From: a virus
Reading direction: 5' to 3' (one strand)
Length of the DNA: 64,000 nucleotides
IMG/VR virus record: IMGVR_UViG_3300032282_001105
Coordinates: 1-64,000 of that record
The notes beneath the pieces are model-generated. The model saw nothing but the letters and a program-made list of their open reading frames with translations. It ran no database searches and had not been told where the DNA came from. The translations under genes were made by a program, and so were the position numbers. Below, piece after piece: positions 43,241 to 63,938 of this stretch. Position 1 is the stretch's first letter. The number at the start of each line of letters is the position of its first letter.

Positions 43241-43248
43241 TCTAAATA
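43241..43248 (+). promoter_or_regulatory. Late-promoter-like TCTAAATA heading the modification cluster
   Basis: TAAATA core then AGGAG RBS, before the first gene of a ~20-kb near-gapless run. A TTGACA at 43223 lacks a well-spaced -10. Confidence 0.6.
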
Positions 43249-43265
43249 CTCTTAGGAGAACATAG

Positions 43266-43571
43266 ATGGATACCAAAACCTTACTTACTGAGGCGAAAGC
43301 TAGATTCAATCTCAACAGTGCAAAAGCACAATTAAAAGACAAATATGATGGCAAGCTTATTATTGCCAGTCAAGGTGGCTTGTGGAAAGCTGACCAACAA
43401 ACAATTAATTTCTTATCTAGTTTTGATACCGAAACTGTAATTTTAATAGATACTTTTGATAGTCCTGTAACTGTTGATAGAGTTGCATTATTAGATAAAT
43501 TGAAAAATTTATATTCCGATGTAATGACAGCTTGGCACGATGAATATAAAGAGATAGAGAATACACGATGA
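43266..43571 (+). CDS. Hypothetical protein (possibly tail-fibre assembly-like)
   Basis: AGGAG RBS, ATGA coupling to the next gene; no motif recognised. Confidence 0.7.
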   Translation: MDTKTLLTEAKARFNLNSAKAQLKDKYDGKLIIASQGGLWKADQQTINFLSSFDTETVILIDTFDSPVTVDRVALLDKLKNLYSDVMTAWHDEYKEIENTR

Positions 43572-44371
43572 GCAGAGGTGCAATATTATTTGCGTTCAAC
43601 TCACCTAAATTTGACTATTATAAAATGGCGGTTGCAACAGCAAAAAGAGTTAATCACTTTTTGGATATACCAGTCACTGTTGTGACTGACAAATCTTCTG
43701 TATCTAATGACCTGTATCAATTTGATAAAACAATATTAGTTGAACCCGATAAAAGCAATAATAGGGATTGGGGAATGTGGATTAATAAAGGGCGATATCA
43801 AGCATATGAATTAAGCCCATATGACGAAACACTATTACTTGATACTGACTATATGGTCAATTCAAATAAAACATTAGATATCTTTAATTATTATGATGAC
43901 TTCTCCTGTCACAATAAAACAAACTTTTTGATGCAACCGAGCTTACCGCAAGAAGTACTAAGCGTCTATAGCTTTGAAACATTGTGGGCAACCGTTGTTG
44001 CATTTAAAAAATCAAACCGTGCTAAACAGATATTTGATTGTTTGGAAATGATTCAAAAGAATTTCAATCATTATGCAGAGATACACGGTTTTGTGTCTGG
44101 TACATATAGAAATGATTATGCACTAACATTAGCATTAAGAATAGTTAACGGTCATTCTTCAATTAAAAGAGATTTCATTCCCTGGAATTTAGTTCATTTG
44201 GGACAACGAAATGTACATATCTATCGAAATAATGATGACGAATTCAATACAGAATATACCGTTACATATGATAATCATCAGCGTGGCAAAATTCGTAAAG
44301 AATACATTACTATTAAAGATTTCGATTTCCACGTAATGAATAAAGATAATTTTCTGGAGTTAATAGAATGA
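43568..44371 (+). CDS. GT-A fold glycosyltransferase-like protein
   Basis: YELSPYDETLLLDTDY (DxD), WATVVAFKKS, RNDYAL. Confidence 0.7.
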   Translation: MSRGAILFAFNSPKFDYYKMAVATAKRVNHFLDIPVTVVTDKSSVSNDLYQFDKTILVEPDKSNNRDWGMWINKGRYQAYELSPYDETLLLDTDYMVNSNKTLDIFNYYDDFSCHNKTNFLMQPSLPQEVLSVYSFETLWATVVAFKKSNRAKQIFDCLEMIQKNFNHYAEIHGFVSGTYRNDYALTLALRIVNGHSSIKRDFIPWNLVHLGQRNVHIYRNNDDEFNTEYTVTYDNHQRGKIRKEYITIKDFDFHVMNKDNFLELIE

Positions 44372-60885: not shown

Positions 60886-60986
60886 TTAATTGGATAAAAA
60901 ATTTATACTACAAAATAAAAATGGAAATTCGTTATCGCAAACGATTAAAAGAAATGAAAAAACGAGATCCATTCATATACAAATGA
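60882..60986 (+). CDS. 34-aa basic small protein not in the ORF track (MINWIKNLYYKIKMEIRYRKRLKEMKKRDPFIYK)
   Basis: AAGGA RBS at 60871-60875; ATGA overlaps at both ends (60882 and 60983). Confidence 0.8.
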   Translation: MINWIKNLYYKIKMEIRYRKRLKEMKKRDPFIYK

Positions 60987-61819
60987 ACGAAAATTTTGCT
61001 AAATTAAATCTATTAAAATCATCTTCTATAGAAGATGTTAAACATTATTCTACAACCAATACTTCTACTGTAGGATTACCGGTAGGAGAAATAACGCAAT
61101 TTTTATATTACAGCCCCGGTGATATACAATATGCACATACTTGGGAATATGAACAATTTGATTATATGATAAATCATTTAGGTTTTAGAAATACTGAAAT
61201 ACCCAAAGAAACAGATATTGCAGTATTTGGTTGTAGCTTCACGTTTGGTTTAGGTTTACCTATAGAGATGATATGGCATACTATACTAGCAGACAGATTG
61301 AATACAAAGGTTGCTAATTATGGTGTTCCTGGAGCATCGATTAAGACAATAACTGATTTAGCAATGATAATAAGTAATCATACTAAAATTAATAAAGCTA
61401 TTTTTCTTTTACCTACATATAGTAGAATGCAAGTAGCAAAAACTAGCCCGTTTGAAGATGAGGTGAATTATCTTTCAATAATACCTAATCATAAATCAGA
61501 GTTATGTAAGAAATATGAAATAGAAGCAGAGTTATTAGTAAAATCTACTCCGGATGAAGAGATGTTTAAAGTGTTGAGAGATAGTGTATATTTGGTAGAC
61601 CATATTTTTAAAGAGAGAAACATTAAAACGTATTTCTCATCCTGGGATCCTGATACATATGAATTTTTAACATATATGGATTTGCAGGGTGTTTTGTTAC
61701 CTGATTGGACTAGTAAGGGAATGCAACAAGCAACTACTGATTTGGCCAGAGACAAATTACATCCGGGTCCAGTCCACCAACAACAGTTTGTAGACAAAAT
61801 CATAGATTATATCAAATGA
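60983..61819 (+). CDS. Second SGNH-family protein (start reassigned to ATG 60983)
   Basis: INHLGFR, FGCSFTFG.G, NYGVPGAS, ARDKLHPG; ATGA coupling to the 34-aa ORF. Confidence 0.8.
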   Translation: MNENFAKLNLLKSSSIEDVKHYSTTNTSTVGLPVGEITQFLYYSPGDIQYAHTWEYEQFDYMINHLGFRNTEIPKETDIAVFGCSFTFGLGLPIEMIWHTILADRLNTKVANYGVPGASIKTITDLAMIISNHTKINKAIFLLPTYSRMQVAKTSPFEDEVNYLSIIPNHKSELCKKYEIEAELLVKSTPDEEMFKVLRDSVYLVDHIFKERNIKTYFSSWDPDTYEFLTYMDLQGVLLPDWTSKGMQQATTDLARDKLHPGPVHQQQFVDKIIDYIK

Positions 61820-63312
61820 ACTATATAGGAATATCTAGTGGGTTTCACGATGCCGCAATCAGCGTAATAGATGATGCTGGTAACATACTATTTGCCGGAC
61901 ATAGTGAACGTTACTCAAAACATAAACACGATAAACATTTGTGCTATGATATTGTTGAGGACGCATTAAAAAATTGTAATAGTAGAGATGTTGAAATTCA
62001 CTACTATGAACGTCCTTGGATGAAGTTCTTGCGCCAAGTTCGTTCGGGTGAAAAGCCTGCATTATCTAATTTATCTGTTAAAGAGGTTATAGGTACAGGA
62101 TTACTCCATAAATTACAAGATGGTCGTGGTGGAAAAGTATATACTCACAATCATCATCTAAGTCACGCTGCCGCAGGATTTCAAACTAGTCCTTATAAAG
62201 ATGCCACTGTAGTCGTTATTGATGCTATTGGTGAGTTTGATACTATTAGTATTTGGAATGCATATTACGATAAGAACGGTGTAGCAAAGTATAAGAAGTT
62301 ATGGGGACAACGTTATCCGGATAGTATTGGCTTATTTTATTCAGCAATGACACAACGTGCAGGATTAAAACCATTAGATGAAGAATATATCTTAATGGGA
62401 ATGGCTGCCTATGGTAACACAACTGCACTAGCAGAAATGTCTAACACACTAGTTAAATCCATTAAAGATATTACTTTCAAAGATAATTTACAAATAGGTG
62501 TATCTGAAAATTTCTTAGAAGGTACTAATGAAATGAACATTGCTACTAGTGCTCAATTGATTGCAGAACAGTTAATTACTTCAGTAATTAGTAAAGCACG
62601 TATGTTAGGTGGTAGTAAGAATTTAGTATATGGTGGTGGTGTAGCATTAAACTGTTTAGCAAATAGACTATTAGGAAACTTTTATGACAACATTTGGATT
62701 ATGCCTAATCCTGGCGATGCTGGCTCCAGTCTTGGTGCGGCTTGTCTTGGTTATGGTAAGGCTGTTAATTGGACTAGTGCTTTTCTTGGCAATGATATTC
62801 GTGGGGATTACCCTACCAATCGTATACTTGATAGTTTACTTTCCGTTAAAATCGTTGGAGTCGCTAGTGGACGAGCCGAGTTTGGCCCTAGGGCACTCGG
62901 GAACAGAAGCTTATTGGCCGACCCAAGGGGTAAAGAAATAAAGGATAAAGTAAATGAAATTAAACGTAGACAAAAATTCAGACCATTTGCGCCAGTCATT
63001 CTGGAGGAGTATGCTGATACTTACTTTGATATGCCTCATGGTTTCGATAACAGTAGGTATATGCAAGTCATCGCTCGTTGTAGGGTACCTGACTTATTTC
63101 CTGCTATCATTCATCACGATGGTACTAGTAGGGTACAGACTGTGCCAAAGGATGGCTCCGGGATAAGAGAACTATTAGAGAAGTGGTACGTACTAACAGG
63201 TTGCCCAATGTTACTCAACACAAGTTTAAATATTCGTGGAGAGCCAATGGTAAATGACCGAGATGATGCGGATCGCTTTGAAAAGTTATATAATATAAAG
63301 GTGATATCATAA
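61816..63312 (+). CDS. O-carbamoyltransferase, NodU/CmcH/TobZ family
   Basis: HDAA, ERYSK.K, HHLSHAA, GGVALNC, PGDAG, GRAEFGPRALGNRS, RPFAP, RVQTV, LLNTSLN.RGEP. Confidence 0.95.
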   Translation: MNYIGISSGFHDAAISVIDDAGNILFAGHSERYSKHKHDKHLCYDIVEDALKNCNSRDVEIHYYERPWMKFLRQVRSGEKPALSNLSVKEVIGTGLLHKLQDGRGGKVYTHNHHLSHAAAGFQTSPYKDATVVVIDAIGEFDTISIWNAYYDKNGVAKYKKLWGQRYPDSIGLFYSAMTQRAGLKPLDEEYILMGMAAYGNTTALAEMSNTLVKSIKDITFKDNLQIGVSENFLEGTNEMNIATSAQLIAEQLITSVISKARMLGGSKNLVYGGGVALNCLANRLLGNFYDNIWIMPNPGDAGSSLGAACLGYGKAVNWTSAFLGNDIRGDYPTNRILDSLLSVKIVGVASGRAEFGPRALGNRSLLADPRGKEIKDKVNEIKRRQKFRPFAPVILEEYADTYFDMPHGFDNSRYMQVIARCRVPDLFPAIIHHDGTSRVQTVPKDGSGIRELLEKWYVLTGCPMLLNTSLNIRGEPMVNDRDDADRFEKLYNIKVIS

Positions 63313-63938
63313 TGCAAATTTATCCCATAGATGATAAGAAAAGAATTTTTCAAATTATTGACTTGCTGGACCAAGAAACAGTTGATTGGATGAATACAGT
63401 TGATTGGCTGTCAATAAAAAATTACGAATTTGATTCAGGAGACCCAAAATATATTTTTCCTAGAAAAATACTAGATAGCGCAAATAGTGATGTTATCAAA
63501 TTAACTACGTCAATGCAAAACAAATTGTCAACTATTAATAATTTAATAGAAACTTCATTAAACGATATCAATATAAATTTATGGTTAGATGGTCCGGGAT
63601 TTAAAATGGCGGTTCATACTGATGAAGGAATAGAAAGAGTTGGTGTTATTGCCTCCCTACAATTGTATCTATTTGCTCCTAATGAAGATTATGGTACAGA
63701 ATTTTTTACTCCTAAAGAATTTTTTAATCCTAATGAAGATTATGATACGGTATTATTTGATAAATATAAAAGAATTCCGTTCAATTCATACTACAAGTTT
63801 AAGTCAATACCTAATACAGGTTATCTAATGCTTAATCATTTAAATGAAGATGGGTCATTGCCTATGCTATGGCACGGTATGTTAAATCCTGTACCCGAAG
63901 GATGTTATAGATTAAGCGCCTATTGGTATTTTAAATAA
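63312..63938 (+). CDS. 2-oxoglutarate/Fe(II)-dependent oxygenase
   Basis: HTD (HxD)...WHG...RLS (RxS) pattern; TAATG coupling to the carbamoyltransferase. Confidence 0.8.
   Translation: MQIYPIDDKKRIFQIIDLLDQETVDWMNTVDWLSIKNYEFDSGDPKYIFPRKILDSANSDVIKLTTSMQNKLSTINNLIETSLNDININLWLDGPGFKMAVHTDEGIERVGVIASLQLYLFAPNEDYGTEFFTPKEFFNPNEDYDTVLFDKYKRIPFNSYYKFKSIPNTGYLMLNHLNEDGSLPMLWHGMLNPVPEGCYRLSAYWYFK

Follow-up and report, generated by a model that had tools for sequence, protein, structure and literature searches.

A radical SAM-rich enzyme cluster behind the tail-fibre genes of a T4-like phage: a candidate module for building and tailoring a fibre glycan

What use might a bacteriophage have for ten radical S-adenosylmethionine (SAM) enzymes encoded immediately behind its tail-fibre genes? 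The question is raised by IMG/VR virus record IMGVR_UViG_3300032282_001105, a 72.3-kb phage contig whose first 64 kb (64,000 nt) are here called the window. Positions 43266-63938 hold 20 open reading frames (ORFs) of 101-521 aa and one ORF of 34 codons (60882-60986), all on the + strand. An earlier note, made from the letters of the DNA, had described 21 co-oriented, mostly overlapping genes here and proposed that the phage builds and decorates a glycan. Its count was right with the 34-aa peptide included: overlaps (ATGA, GTGA, TAATG or longer) occur at 17 of the 20 internal junctions, the largest internal gap is 12 nt, and 47 nt part the first gene (g01) from the preceding gene, for a 316-aa protein. 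Its end point of 63938 did not hold, as the contig carries the cluster on to about 70748 with three more genes, for a 1567-aa repeat protein, an NAD epimerase and a sugar C-methyltransferase. The cluster enzymes all belong to a single translationally coupled unit that comes straight after the fibre genes for proteins of 206, 518 and 316 aa (called here 206, 518 and 316). We argue that the cluster is probably an operon for building and tailoring sugars. More tentatively, at a little short of an even chance, we take it to supply the enzymes of a module, widespread among large T4-like phages of aquatic habitats, that pairs fibres with a glycan carried on the phage's own fibre proteins.

How general is this arrangement? 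A scan of IMG/VR seeded with an alignment of GTc (the product of g05) gave at least 593 relatives, the best 80 of which were examined; these are the closest relatives, and the counts that follow describe this lineage, not all of the at least 593. Where at least 6 kb of upstream sequence was available (73 loci), the genes for GTa (g02), GTb (g03), 316 and 518 were present every time, that for 206 in 72 and that for the small protein s101 (g01) in 71; where at least 3 kb was available downstream (71 loci), 69 had at least one radical SAM gene of the N_Twi family discussed below, the best match being of the rS07 type (represented here by g07) in 67. The linkage to fibre genes asserted in the earlier note, put to comparative genomics, is thus near-invariant. 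The invariant core is 206-518-316-s101-GTa-GTb-s110-GTc-rS07, and it is followed by a hypervariable tailoring tail, which in relatives includes extra radical SAMs, SGNH-like proteins, short-chain dehydrogenases (SDRs), an NDP-sugar 4,6-dehydratase/epimerase, a PseC/DesI-type aminotransferase, UDP-glucose dehydrogenase and a carbamoyltransferase; the 53 GTc loci with full flanks had from 1 to 7 radical SAMs each within 10 kb. Another scan of IMG/VR, seeded with the radical SAM g10, gave 60 loci, all holding the radical SAM family (about five copies per 20 kb) in a fixed gene order with GTa (40), GTc (44), 316 (37), 518 (34), carbamoyltransferase (29) and relatives of the 1567-aa protein, which close the module in 41. 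That protein has 12-13 FDxSWxPD repeat units about 65 residues apart, and groups with g05 in clustering. A complete 352-kb relative has 13-14 radical SAM copies over the family cut-off.

The module also occurs in a phage that has been cultured, the Ralstonia jumbo phage RsoM2USA, in a minimal form and in the same order, from ORF355 to ORF348: a fibre-type N-terminus (with a motif common to ORF355 and the N-terminus of 518), a small protein, GTa, GTb, another small protein, GTc, a radical SAM resembling rS07 (ORF349, to which g07 is 33% identical) and a GTc-like fragment. It lies just downstream of ORF356, ORF359 and ORF361, proteins that, according to the available part of the report on this phage, were detected in its virions (PMC8504454). 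When the whole cluster was compared with phage records by megablast, there was no match.

Turning to the radical SAM enzymes themselves, all ten (g07-g16) scored 190.8-356.6 bits against the NCBIfam family NF033640 (N_Twi_rSAM; cut-off 170), a cut-off exceeded in none of 14 control genomes, and the earlier note was therefore correct in recognizing ten of them. They match the layout of the family, with an N-terminal four-cysteine domain followed by a CxxxCxxC core, and all ten look catalytically intact, because the N-terminal cysteines (C24, C43, C85 and C88), the CxxxCxxC motif (C144, C148 and C151) and a GGEP motif are invariant in their alignment; Pfam places a SPASM domain N-terminal of Radical_SAM in g10, g11, g13 and g16. 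The paralogues are old: they are 19-31% identical to g07, and fall in separate supported clades together with viral and cellular orthologues, in a FastTree tree (with several long branches) of 10 window, 58 viral and 73 cellular rows, which remained from 315 viral and 126 cellular proteins after those outside 340-560 aa and rows more than 50% identical had been dropped. The only recent duplicate pair is g08/g09 (sisters with a support of 100), and g09 is 63% identical to the g08 orthologue of a relative locus, L002. What do these enzymes do? A full-text literature search by family name returned no paper that, by its title or the start of its abstract, deals with NF033640, and no characterised member, so the family name gives no reaction. 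Against the PDB, g10 found MoaA as its sole match (E 0.002). In the cultured Vibrio phage K566, we observed four N_Twi-like radical SAM genes (161548-168284) 21-24% identical to g10; GTa, GTb and GTc were not detected in their vicinity, and a gene resembling PagP is a few genes distant.

For the three GT-A-like proteins that the earlier note had recognized, the assignment is backed by fold for g02 (of which g03 is a paralogue) and weakly for g05, and by conserved Asp and His residues; in Pfam, none of the three has a match. The model of g02 (predicted local distance difference test, pLDDT, 90) gave Foldseek matches to glycogenin and other GT8 proteins at E 2e-8 (TM about 0.5, 14% identity), and Asp94, Asp183 and His255, which fit a DxD-type metal site with a distal His, are invariant in 42 GTa/GTb sequences; in g03, Glu replaces the first Asp of DxD. 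We file g02 and g03 as GT8-like by their predicted fold, since Pfam (Glyco_transf_8 included) gave only chance matches at E≤5 and a PDB profile search none. The g05 model (pLDDT 88.7) had weak Foldseek matches to GT-A/GT2 proteins (E 6e-4 to 1e-3, TM 0.2-0.37), among them BcsA, ArnC and the capsid glycosyltransferase A64R of chlorovirus PBCV-1 (2p6w, E 8.6e-4); its DGD motif is invariant in 33 sequences, and no Pfam or PDB sequence match was found for it, a PDB profile search with the GTc alignment giving nothing useful.

Among the remaining products, Pfam bears out the methyltransferase (g06) and, through both domains, the carbamoyltransferase (g19: Carbam_trans_N 113 bits and Carbam_trans_C 161 bits against cut-offs of 24 and 27) of the earlier note. 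NodU itself was considered for g19 and rejected, the score being 139 bits against more than 1000 for the NodU equivalog NF041651, so that g19 is a family member only. The two SGNH-like proteins show GDS or GCS and DxxH motifs, and their Lipase_GDSL matches (16.2 bits for g17, E 0.012; 15.6 bits for g18) are below the threshold of 23.6; a 267-aa family related to g18 is found in 35 loci. In the case of the supposed 2-oxoglutarate (2OG)-Fe(II) oxygenase, g20, neighbours in a protein atlas agree (viral 2OG-Fe(II) oxygenase clusters with PF13640 at 43-100% share; score 0.94, TM 0.67-0.79), and hidden Markov models do not, there being no Pfam or NCBIfam match. The third of the small unknowns that had been noted is the 34-aa peptide, whose ORF overlaps the annotated TTG start of g18 (at 60890; the true start is probably Met32) and is coupled by ATGA on both sides. 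It was matched at E≤1e-3 in 40 loci, its basic C-terminal half being near-invariant, and is present in 27 of 35 loci with the carbamoyltransferase gene, always upstream of it and in nine cases within 5 nt. Judged from this distribution, it is most simply a partner of the carbamoyltransferase; we presume a likeness to the carbamoyltransferase partners SxtK/DUF5989, and a comparison with Pfam gave no match.

The proteins of the fibre block were considered as possible recipients of sugar. The 518-aa protein has a weak match to the Peptidase_G2 intramolecular-chaperone domain (E 1.3e-4, below the cut-off). The 316-aa protein is 28% Ser+Thr, 5% charged and rich in Thr, Ser, Ala, Gly and Asn, and its N-terminal half resembles, at 32% identity (E 2e-5 to 2e-4), a region of phage PA5oct with a virion-structural annotation; a homotrimer prediction for it scored 0.00 against a mark of 0.42, and was counted neither for nor against. 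None of the cluster proteins shows a clear membrane segment (19 of 20 are free of any, and g18 has a borderline hydrophobic stretch over SGNH block I), and neither family scans nor this check of membrane segments revealed a transporter, flippase or polyprenyl-phosphate transferase. The positions of all these features are collected in Table 1.

Table 1. Features of the fibre block and the enzyme cluster (window coordinates unless stated otherwise; locus counts refer to the GTc-seeded scan)
Feature	Position	Strand	Evidence or remark
206-aa protein, first gene of invariant core	40049..40669	+	72/73 loci; no Pfam family
518-aa fibre protein	40702..42258	+	C-terminal intramolecular-chaperone-like domain; 73/73 loci
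316-aa protein, candidate glycan acceptor	42268..43218	+	73/73 loci
CTAAATAC, T4-late-promoter-like TAAATA motif	43242..43249	+	23 nt before g01 ATG
g01 (s101), small conserved protein	43266..43571	+	71/73 loci; no family
g02 (GTa), GT8-like retaining-type GT-A glycosyltransferase	43568..44371	+	fold match to glycogenin
g03 (GTb), GTa paralogue	44368..45141	+	aligns with GTa; PHROG 1903 E 5.5e-7; 73/73 loci
g04 (s110), small conserved protein	45129..45461	+	position between GTb and GTc kept; no family
g05 (GTc), GT-A-like transferase	45448..46401	+	invariant DGD, weak fold match
g06, class I SAM methyltransferase	46398..47009	+	Pfam Methyltransf_25/23/11
g07 (rS07 type), radical SAM, nearly always first after GTc	47006..48571	+	NF033640 286.8 bits
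g08 and g09, N-twitch radical SAMs	48573..51560	+	NF033640 295.8 and 306 bits
g10-g16, seven N-twitch radical SAMs, each of a different old subfamily	51560..60166	+	NF033640 190.8-356.6 bits
g17, SGNH/GDSL-like protein	60163..60885	+	GDS block I and DxxH block V visible in sequence
34-aa basic peptide, C-terminus ending PFIYK	60882..60986	+	hidden under TTG-start extension of g18
g18, SGNH-like protein, GCS variant, DxxH	60983..61819	+	Lipase_GDSL E 0.018
g19, NodU/CmcH-type carbamoyltransferase	61816..63312	+	Carbam_trans_C E 1.8e-47, Carbam_trans_N E 2.4e-32
g20, probable 2OG-Fe(II) oxygenase, prolyl-hydroxylase-like fold	63312..63938	+	protein-atlas lead only
1567-aa repeat protein, GTc-like C-terminal domain without DxD	contig 63971-68674 (window part 63971..64000)	+	

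In what setting do the cellular relatives of these enzymes occur? A scan of one genome per prokaryote species gave 234 radical SAM relatives, from which 79 loci were kept; eight phage-like loci labelled as metagenome-assembled genomes (MAGs) were excluded from the cellular counts (L068, L080, L081, L086, L099, L100, L125 and L139). The cellular N_Twi loci are mainly from Bacteriovoracaceae, Bacteroidota and Alphaproteobacteria, and some are on megabase contigs. Recurrent neighbours are Wzt/Wzm (which form the ABC transporter that exports O-polysaccharides), GT2, PMT_2, DegT aminotransferase, UDP-glucose dehydrogenase and SDR epimerase, with further neighbours including GDSL-like proteins, a methyltransferase, multiple PhyH and WelO5-type oxygenases, and radical SAMs of the classical SPASM and B12 kinds; of the 42 cellular loci of at least 15 kb, 16 carry one glycan marker or more. 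The frequent position of the cellular radical SAM relatives in Wzm/Wzt polysaccharide loci supports a role in sugar tailoring.

Among 151 Bacteriovoracia genomes, an N_Twi radical SAM over the cut-off was found in 79, often with at least ten matches per genome; GTc was found in 11, GTa/GTb in two (one of them weak) and 316 in one, which is also the sole genome with strong GTa/GTb matches. In ten GTc regions fetched from these genomes, GTc lies among N_Twi and classical SPASM-type radical SAMs, with B12 radical SAMs in places. GTc and the radical SAMs are thus a toolkit common to cells and phages, as both are found in Bacteriovoracia, whereas 316, s101, GTa and GTb appear from these distributions to travel together. 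The idea that the whole glycosyltransferase trio is phage-specific was accordingly discarded: it is wrong for GTc, and holds in that sample for GTa/GTb and 316. A separate observation concerns one Bacteriovoracia MAG contig (L232; G095:C21:120000-139884), which has at its end a phage-type 316-s101-GTa-GTb-GTc-radical SAM block, with one in-frame TAA inside the 316 match; a remnant of a prophage, a mistake in binning and a copy belonging to the cell are all conceivable origins.

When might the operon be read? The TAAATA motif noted earlier at its start is indeed there, as CTAAATAC, and an NTAAATA motif is found 22-33 nt before the structural genes starting at 2860(-), 10982, 18835, 19333 and 40702, with GATAAATA 30 nt upstream of the gene for the 518-aa protein; TATAAATA is present once only in the window. 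In a set of 87 listed loci, the closest relatives have the string ATCTAAATAC in common, which precedes s101 and has a Shine-Dalgarno site after it, and TAAATA occurs at most 75 nt upstream of the s101 start in 39. There is also a sigma-70-like match, TTGACA-16-AATACT, at 43223-43250. A sigma-70 promoter before g01 was nevertheless set aside for this clade, as TTGACA is not conserved (it is perfect in only 10 of the 87 loci) while the closest relatives share CTAAATAC; sigma-70-like sites in the region are no commoner than in shuffles (82 against 95.6). In more distant relatives (L175-L222), a GC-rich hairpin with a T-run closes the fibre genes, and the enzyme module begins after a promoter of the extended -10 kind (TGTATAAT-like) in place of the CTAAATAC motif. 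From its conserved position and the similar motif before structural genes, we infer that CTAAATAC probably directs late reading of the operon in this clade only; the late timing put forward in the earlier note is not general, because the distant relatives have a terminator and a sigma-70-like promoter before the module.

How might these components work together? That the cluster builds and tailors sugar is indicated by the folds, by the class of the carbamoyltransferase, by sugar-nucleotide enzymes in and around the module and by the polysaccharide contexts of the cellular relatives, so this part of the earlier proposal has stood, together with the linkage to fibres. We envisage that the GT8-like pair GTa/GTb would prime a sugar on the Ser/Thr-rich 316-aa (perhaps also the 518-aa) fibre protein in the cytoplasm, and that GTc would extend it; each radical SAM enzyme might then remove a hydrogen at one particular carbon of the sugar, with the electron dealt with by the auxiliary cluster, and oxidation, epimerisation, deoxygenation or C-C chemistry would result; methyl, acyl (through the SGNH proteins) and carbamoyl groups would be added last. 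An invariant core with a hypervariable tail could in this way equip every lineage of phages with a fibre glycan of its own, comparable to the part that O-antigen loci play in cells. A fibre target is favoured by the near-invariant joining of the enzymes to 206/518/316 in phages from sea, fresh water and soil, the hosts of which should have different glycans, by the co-occurrence of 316 with GTa/GTb, by an enzyme set that is all soluble and transporter-free, by the glycosylation of proteins by GT8 relatives, and by the late-type promoter motif.

A number of points weigh against such a fibre glycan. The glycan is a prediction from genes, and the GT8 fold does not name the acceptor, because GT8 enzymes also act on lipopolysaccharide cores. 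Nor does the GTc/radical SAM chemistry need a fibre, as bacterial copies occur without 316, GTa or GTb. In one viral locus, L057, GTa/GTb are present and 316 does not immediately precede them. The cellular evidence for glycans is confined to the 16 loci mentioned above, the other 26 carrying no annotation, and the tally of neighbours (148 of 375 neighbour ORFs, drawn at random) is modest, with GT2 in six and PhyH in six of the 148. In the more distant clades, the terminator and sigma-70-like promoter part the fibres from the enzymes. Finally, a receptor-editing function could explain the same synteny equally.

Such editing of host-envelope glycans, which we consider unlikely, is the main rival to a fibre target. 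Soluble phage enzymes would alter nucleotide sugars, or the undecaprenyl-linked polysaccharide exported by the host Wzm/Wzt, so that the receptor was changed, superinfection was blocked and progeny were not lost on debris; the fibre linkage would then reflect the matching of receptor and editing enzymes. The cellular relatives of the radical SAM, GDSL and oxygenase proteins do lie in Wzm/Wzt loci, whose glycan is completed while still inside the cytoplasm, a hypervariable tail fits an arms race, the sigma-70-like promoter after a terminator in distant clades would be in keeping, and host O-chain modification is what the accessible part of a paper on pelagimyophages proposes for their corresponding island (PMC7029224). 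This is to be set against the absence from the cluster of any membrane protein, initiating transferase or exporter, the late-type motif before the operon in this clade, the co-occurrence of 316 and GTa/GTb, and a GTa/GTb/GTc core that is invariant across marine, freshwater and soil phages with presumably differing host glycans. It is less probable again that the twitch radical SAMs, in the manner of SPASM peptide maturases, edit residues of the fibre or giant baseplate proteins (by epimerisation, cross-links or oxidation), with the transferases adding sugars separately. The ten radical SAMs have weak NCBIfam side matches to maturases of the ranthipeptide, sactipeptide and anSME types, g20 has prolyl-hydroxylase-like neighbours in the atlas, the composition of the 316-aa protein would suit such chemistry, and in cells the family is found in company with radical SAMs of the classical SPASM and B12 kinds; yet an RRE/PqqD-like leader-binding domain is absent from the Pfam and NCBIfam matches of all ten, the only conserved small peptide tracks the carbamoyltransferase rather than the radical SAMs, and the cellular contexts are polysaccharide loci, not precursor-peptide loci.

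Might the product be a free small molecule, or the target DNA? Aminoglycoside pathways employ enzymes of the twitch radical SAM, carbamoyltransferase and aminotransferase classes (BtrN and TobZ are examples), which speaks for a diffusible small molecule, perhaps aminoglycoside- or nucleoside-like, made during infection. Similar genes in a cyanophage are taken, in the available portion of the paper, for antibiotic genes (PMC12801897). With no cyclitol synthase, non-ribosomal peptide synthetase or polyketide synthase found in family scans of the cluster and its flanks, no exporter, and an invariant fibre linkage, we regard this as very improbable. Modification of DNA, in which the transferases, carbamoyltransferase and radical SAMs would decorate a hydroxymethylated base, seems to us the least probable of the alternatives. 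The enzymes are soluble, as this would require, and phage glycosyltransferases that hypermodify DNA have reportedly been described. The complete 352-kb relative, on the other hand, has a single ThyA-fold gene, whose score (342 bits; cut-off 327) marks it as a genuine thymidylate synthase, and in that relative this bears out the earlier remark that no base hydroxymethylase was visible in the window; Tet/JBP matches were absent from five related records, a weak point as the control was silent too. The avoidance of restriction sites that had been noted is also real: over the whole contig, CATG occurs 24 times where a Markov model predicts 231 (O/E 0.10, z -13.6), with GATC (0.65), CGCG (0.27), GGATCC and TGATCA depleted as well. 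Such ten-fold depletion of CATG, with that of GATC, is as expected for restriction-exposed DNA, and the CATG scarcity suggests long exposure to a CATG-specific restriction system. Together with the joining of the module to fibre genes and not to replication genes, these results disfavour a DNA target.

The surroundings of the cluster are those of a T4-type phage. The left part of the window has T4-type genes for a baseplate protein, a lysozyme-bearing hub, Rad50/Mre11-like proteins and a PDDEXK nuclease, and the large structural ORFs of the + strand end with one of 5717 aa (22731-39884), followed by the genes for the 206-, 518- and 316-aa proteins. Another radical SAM, of the classical type and with a weak SPASM match at its C-terminus, is translationally coupled to a short-chain dehydrogenase (5112-6817, - strand); the pair is remote from the main cluster and sits between the gene for the Rad50-like protein and that for the PDDEXK nuclease.

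If a fibre glycan is indeed made, very common large aquatic phages (to judge from the number of GTc relatives in IMG/VR, at least 593) would make their own heavily edited glycan by means of a radical SAM family without a known reaction, and new sugar chemistry and an unrecognised layer of phage-host recognition could be expected; the same family is also abundant in the predatory Bacteriovoracia, and a loosely described hypervariable island becomes a defined module with an invariant core. As RsoM2USA has been cultured and carries the mini-module (ORF348-355), product and target are directly testable. A wider possibility, which we think doubtful, is that the radical SAMs with an N-terminal twitch domain make up a large, as yet uncharacterised class of enzymes that edit glycans, those of phages (1 to about 15, in swappable cassettes) giving the fibres a lineage-specific, O-antigen-like coat, while Bacteriovoracia and Bacteroidota use the same toolkit on exported polysaccharides. 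Sugars already attached would then be rewritten at unactivated carbons, through epimerisation, oxidation, deoxygenation or the making of C-C bonds, and the coat would tune host recognition or shield the fibre.

How do these enzymes and this module compare with better known ones? Enzymes of the BtrN type, with twitch or SPASM domains, likewise have a radical SAM core and one auxiliary 4Fe-4S cluster, and a context of aminotransferases and carbamoyltransferases; unlike BtrN and its relatives, in which the auxiliary domain is C-terminal, the phage enzymes carry it at the N-terminus, and no similarity of the phage radical SAMs to BtrN was detected. The Wzm/Wzt loci of Bacteroidota, Bacteriovoracia and Alphaproteobacteria have a tailoring toolkit in common with the phage (N_Twi radical SAMs, GDSL-like proteins, 2OG/PhyH oxygenases, methyltransferases, SDRs and DegT), from which the phage module differs in having no transporter or membrane protein, and GTa/GTb and 316/518 instead. 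Virus-encoded glycosylation of virions is exemplified by A64R of chlorovirus PBCV-1 and by the fibril glycans of Mimivirus, and mycobacteriophages are said to bear glycans on capsid and tail-tube; in these systems the virus's own transferases and sugar-nucleotide enzymes decorate structural proteins in the cytoplasm. None of the three is known to use arrays of radical SAM enzymes, and the glycan of the present phages is a predicted one.

The closest parallel is the host recognition cluster (HRC) of pelagimyophages and cyanomyophages, likewise a hypervariable island in the structural region of aquatic T4-like phages (PMC7029224). The HRC of pelagimyophages was described as having GT8 transferases and radical SAM cassettes, and lies between VrlC and gp14 in the structural region, as far as the accessible text of that paper goes (Zaragoza-Solas et al., 2020; PMC7029224). 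The 5717-aa ORF, directly 5' of the fibre block, is possibly a VrlC-like giant baseplate protein, a candidate only; gp14 is not on the 72-kb contig. One T4-like genome with 12 radical SAM genes has also been reported, in the part of the article available (Nishimura et al., 2017; PMC5332604). A full-text literature search returned no paper defining a conserved core, assigning the radical SAM family or testing a product. The type of island is already in print as the HRC, and what we add is the defined invariant core and the assignment to NF033640: where the HRC is treated as non-syntenic in the portion of the 2020 paper available, an ordered and invariant core is here set apart from a variable tail, the radical SAMs are assigned to a family, and their relatives are placed in cellular Wzm/Wzt contexts.

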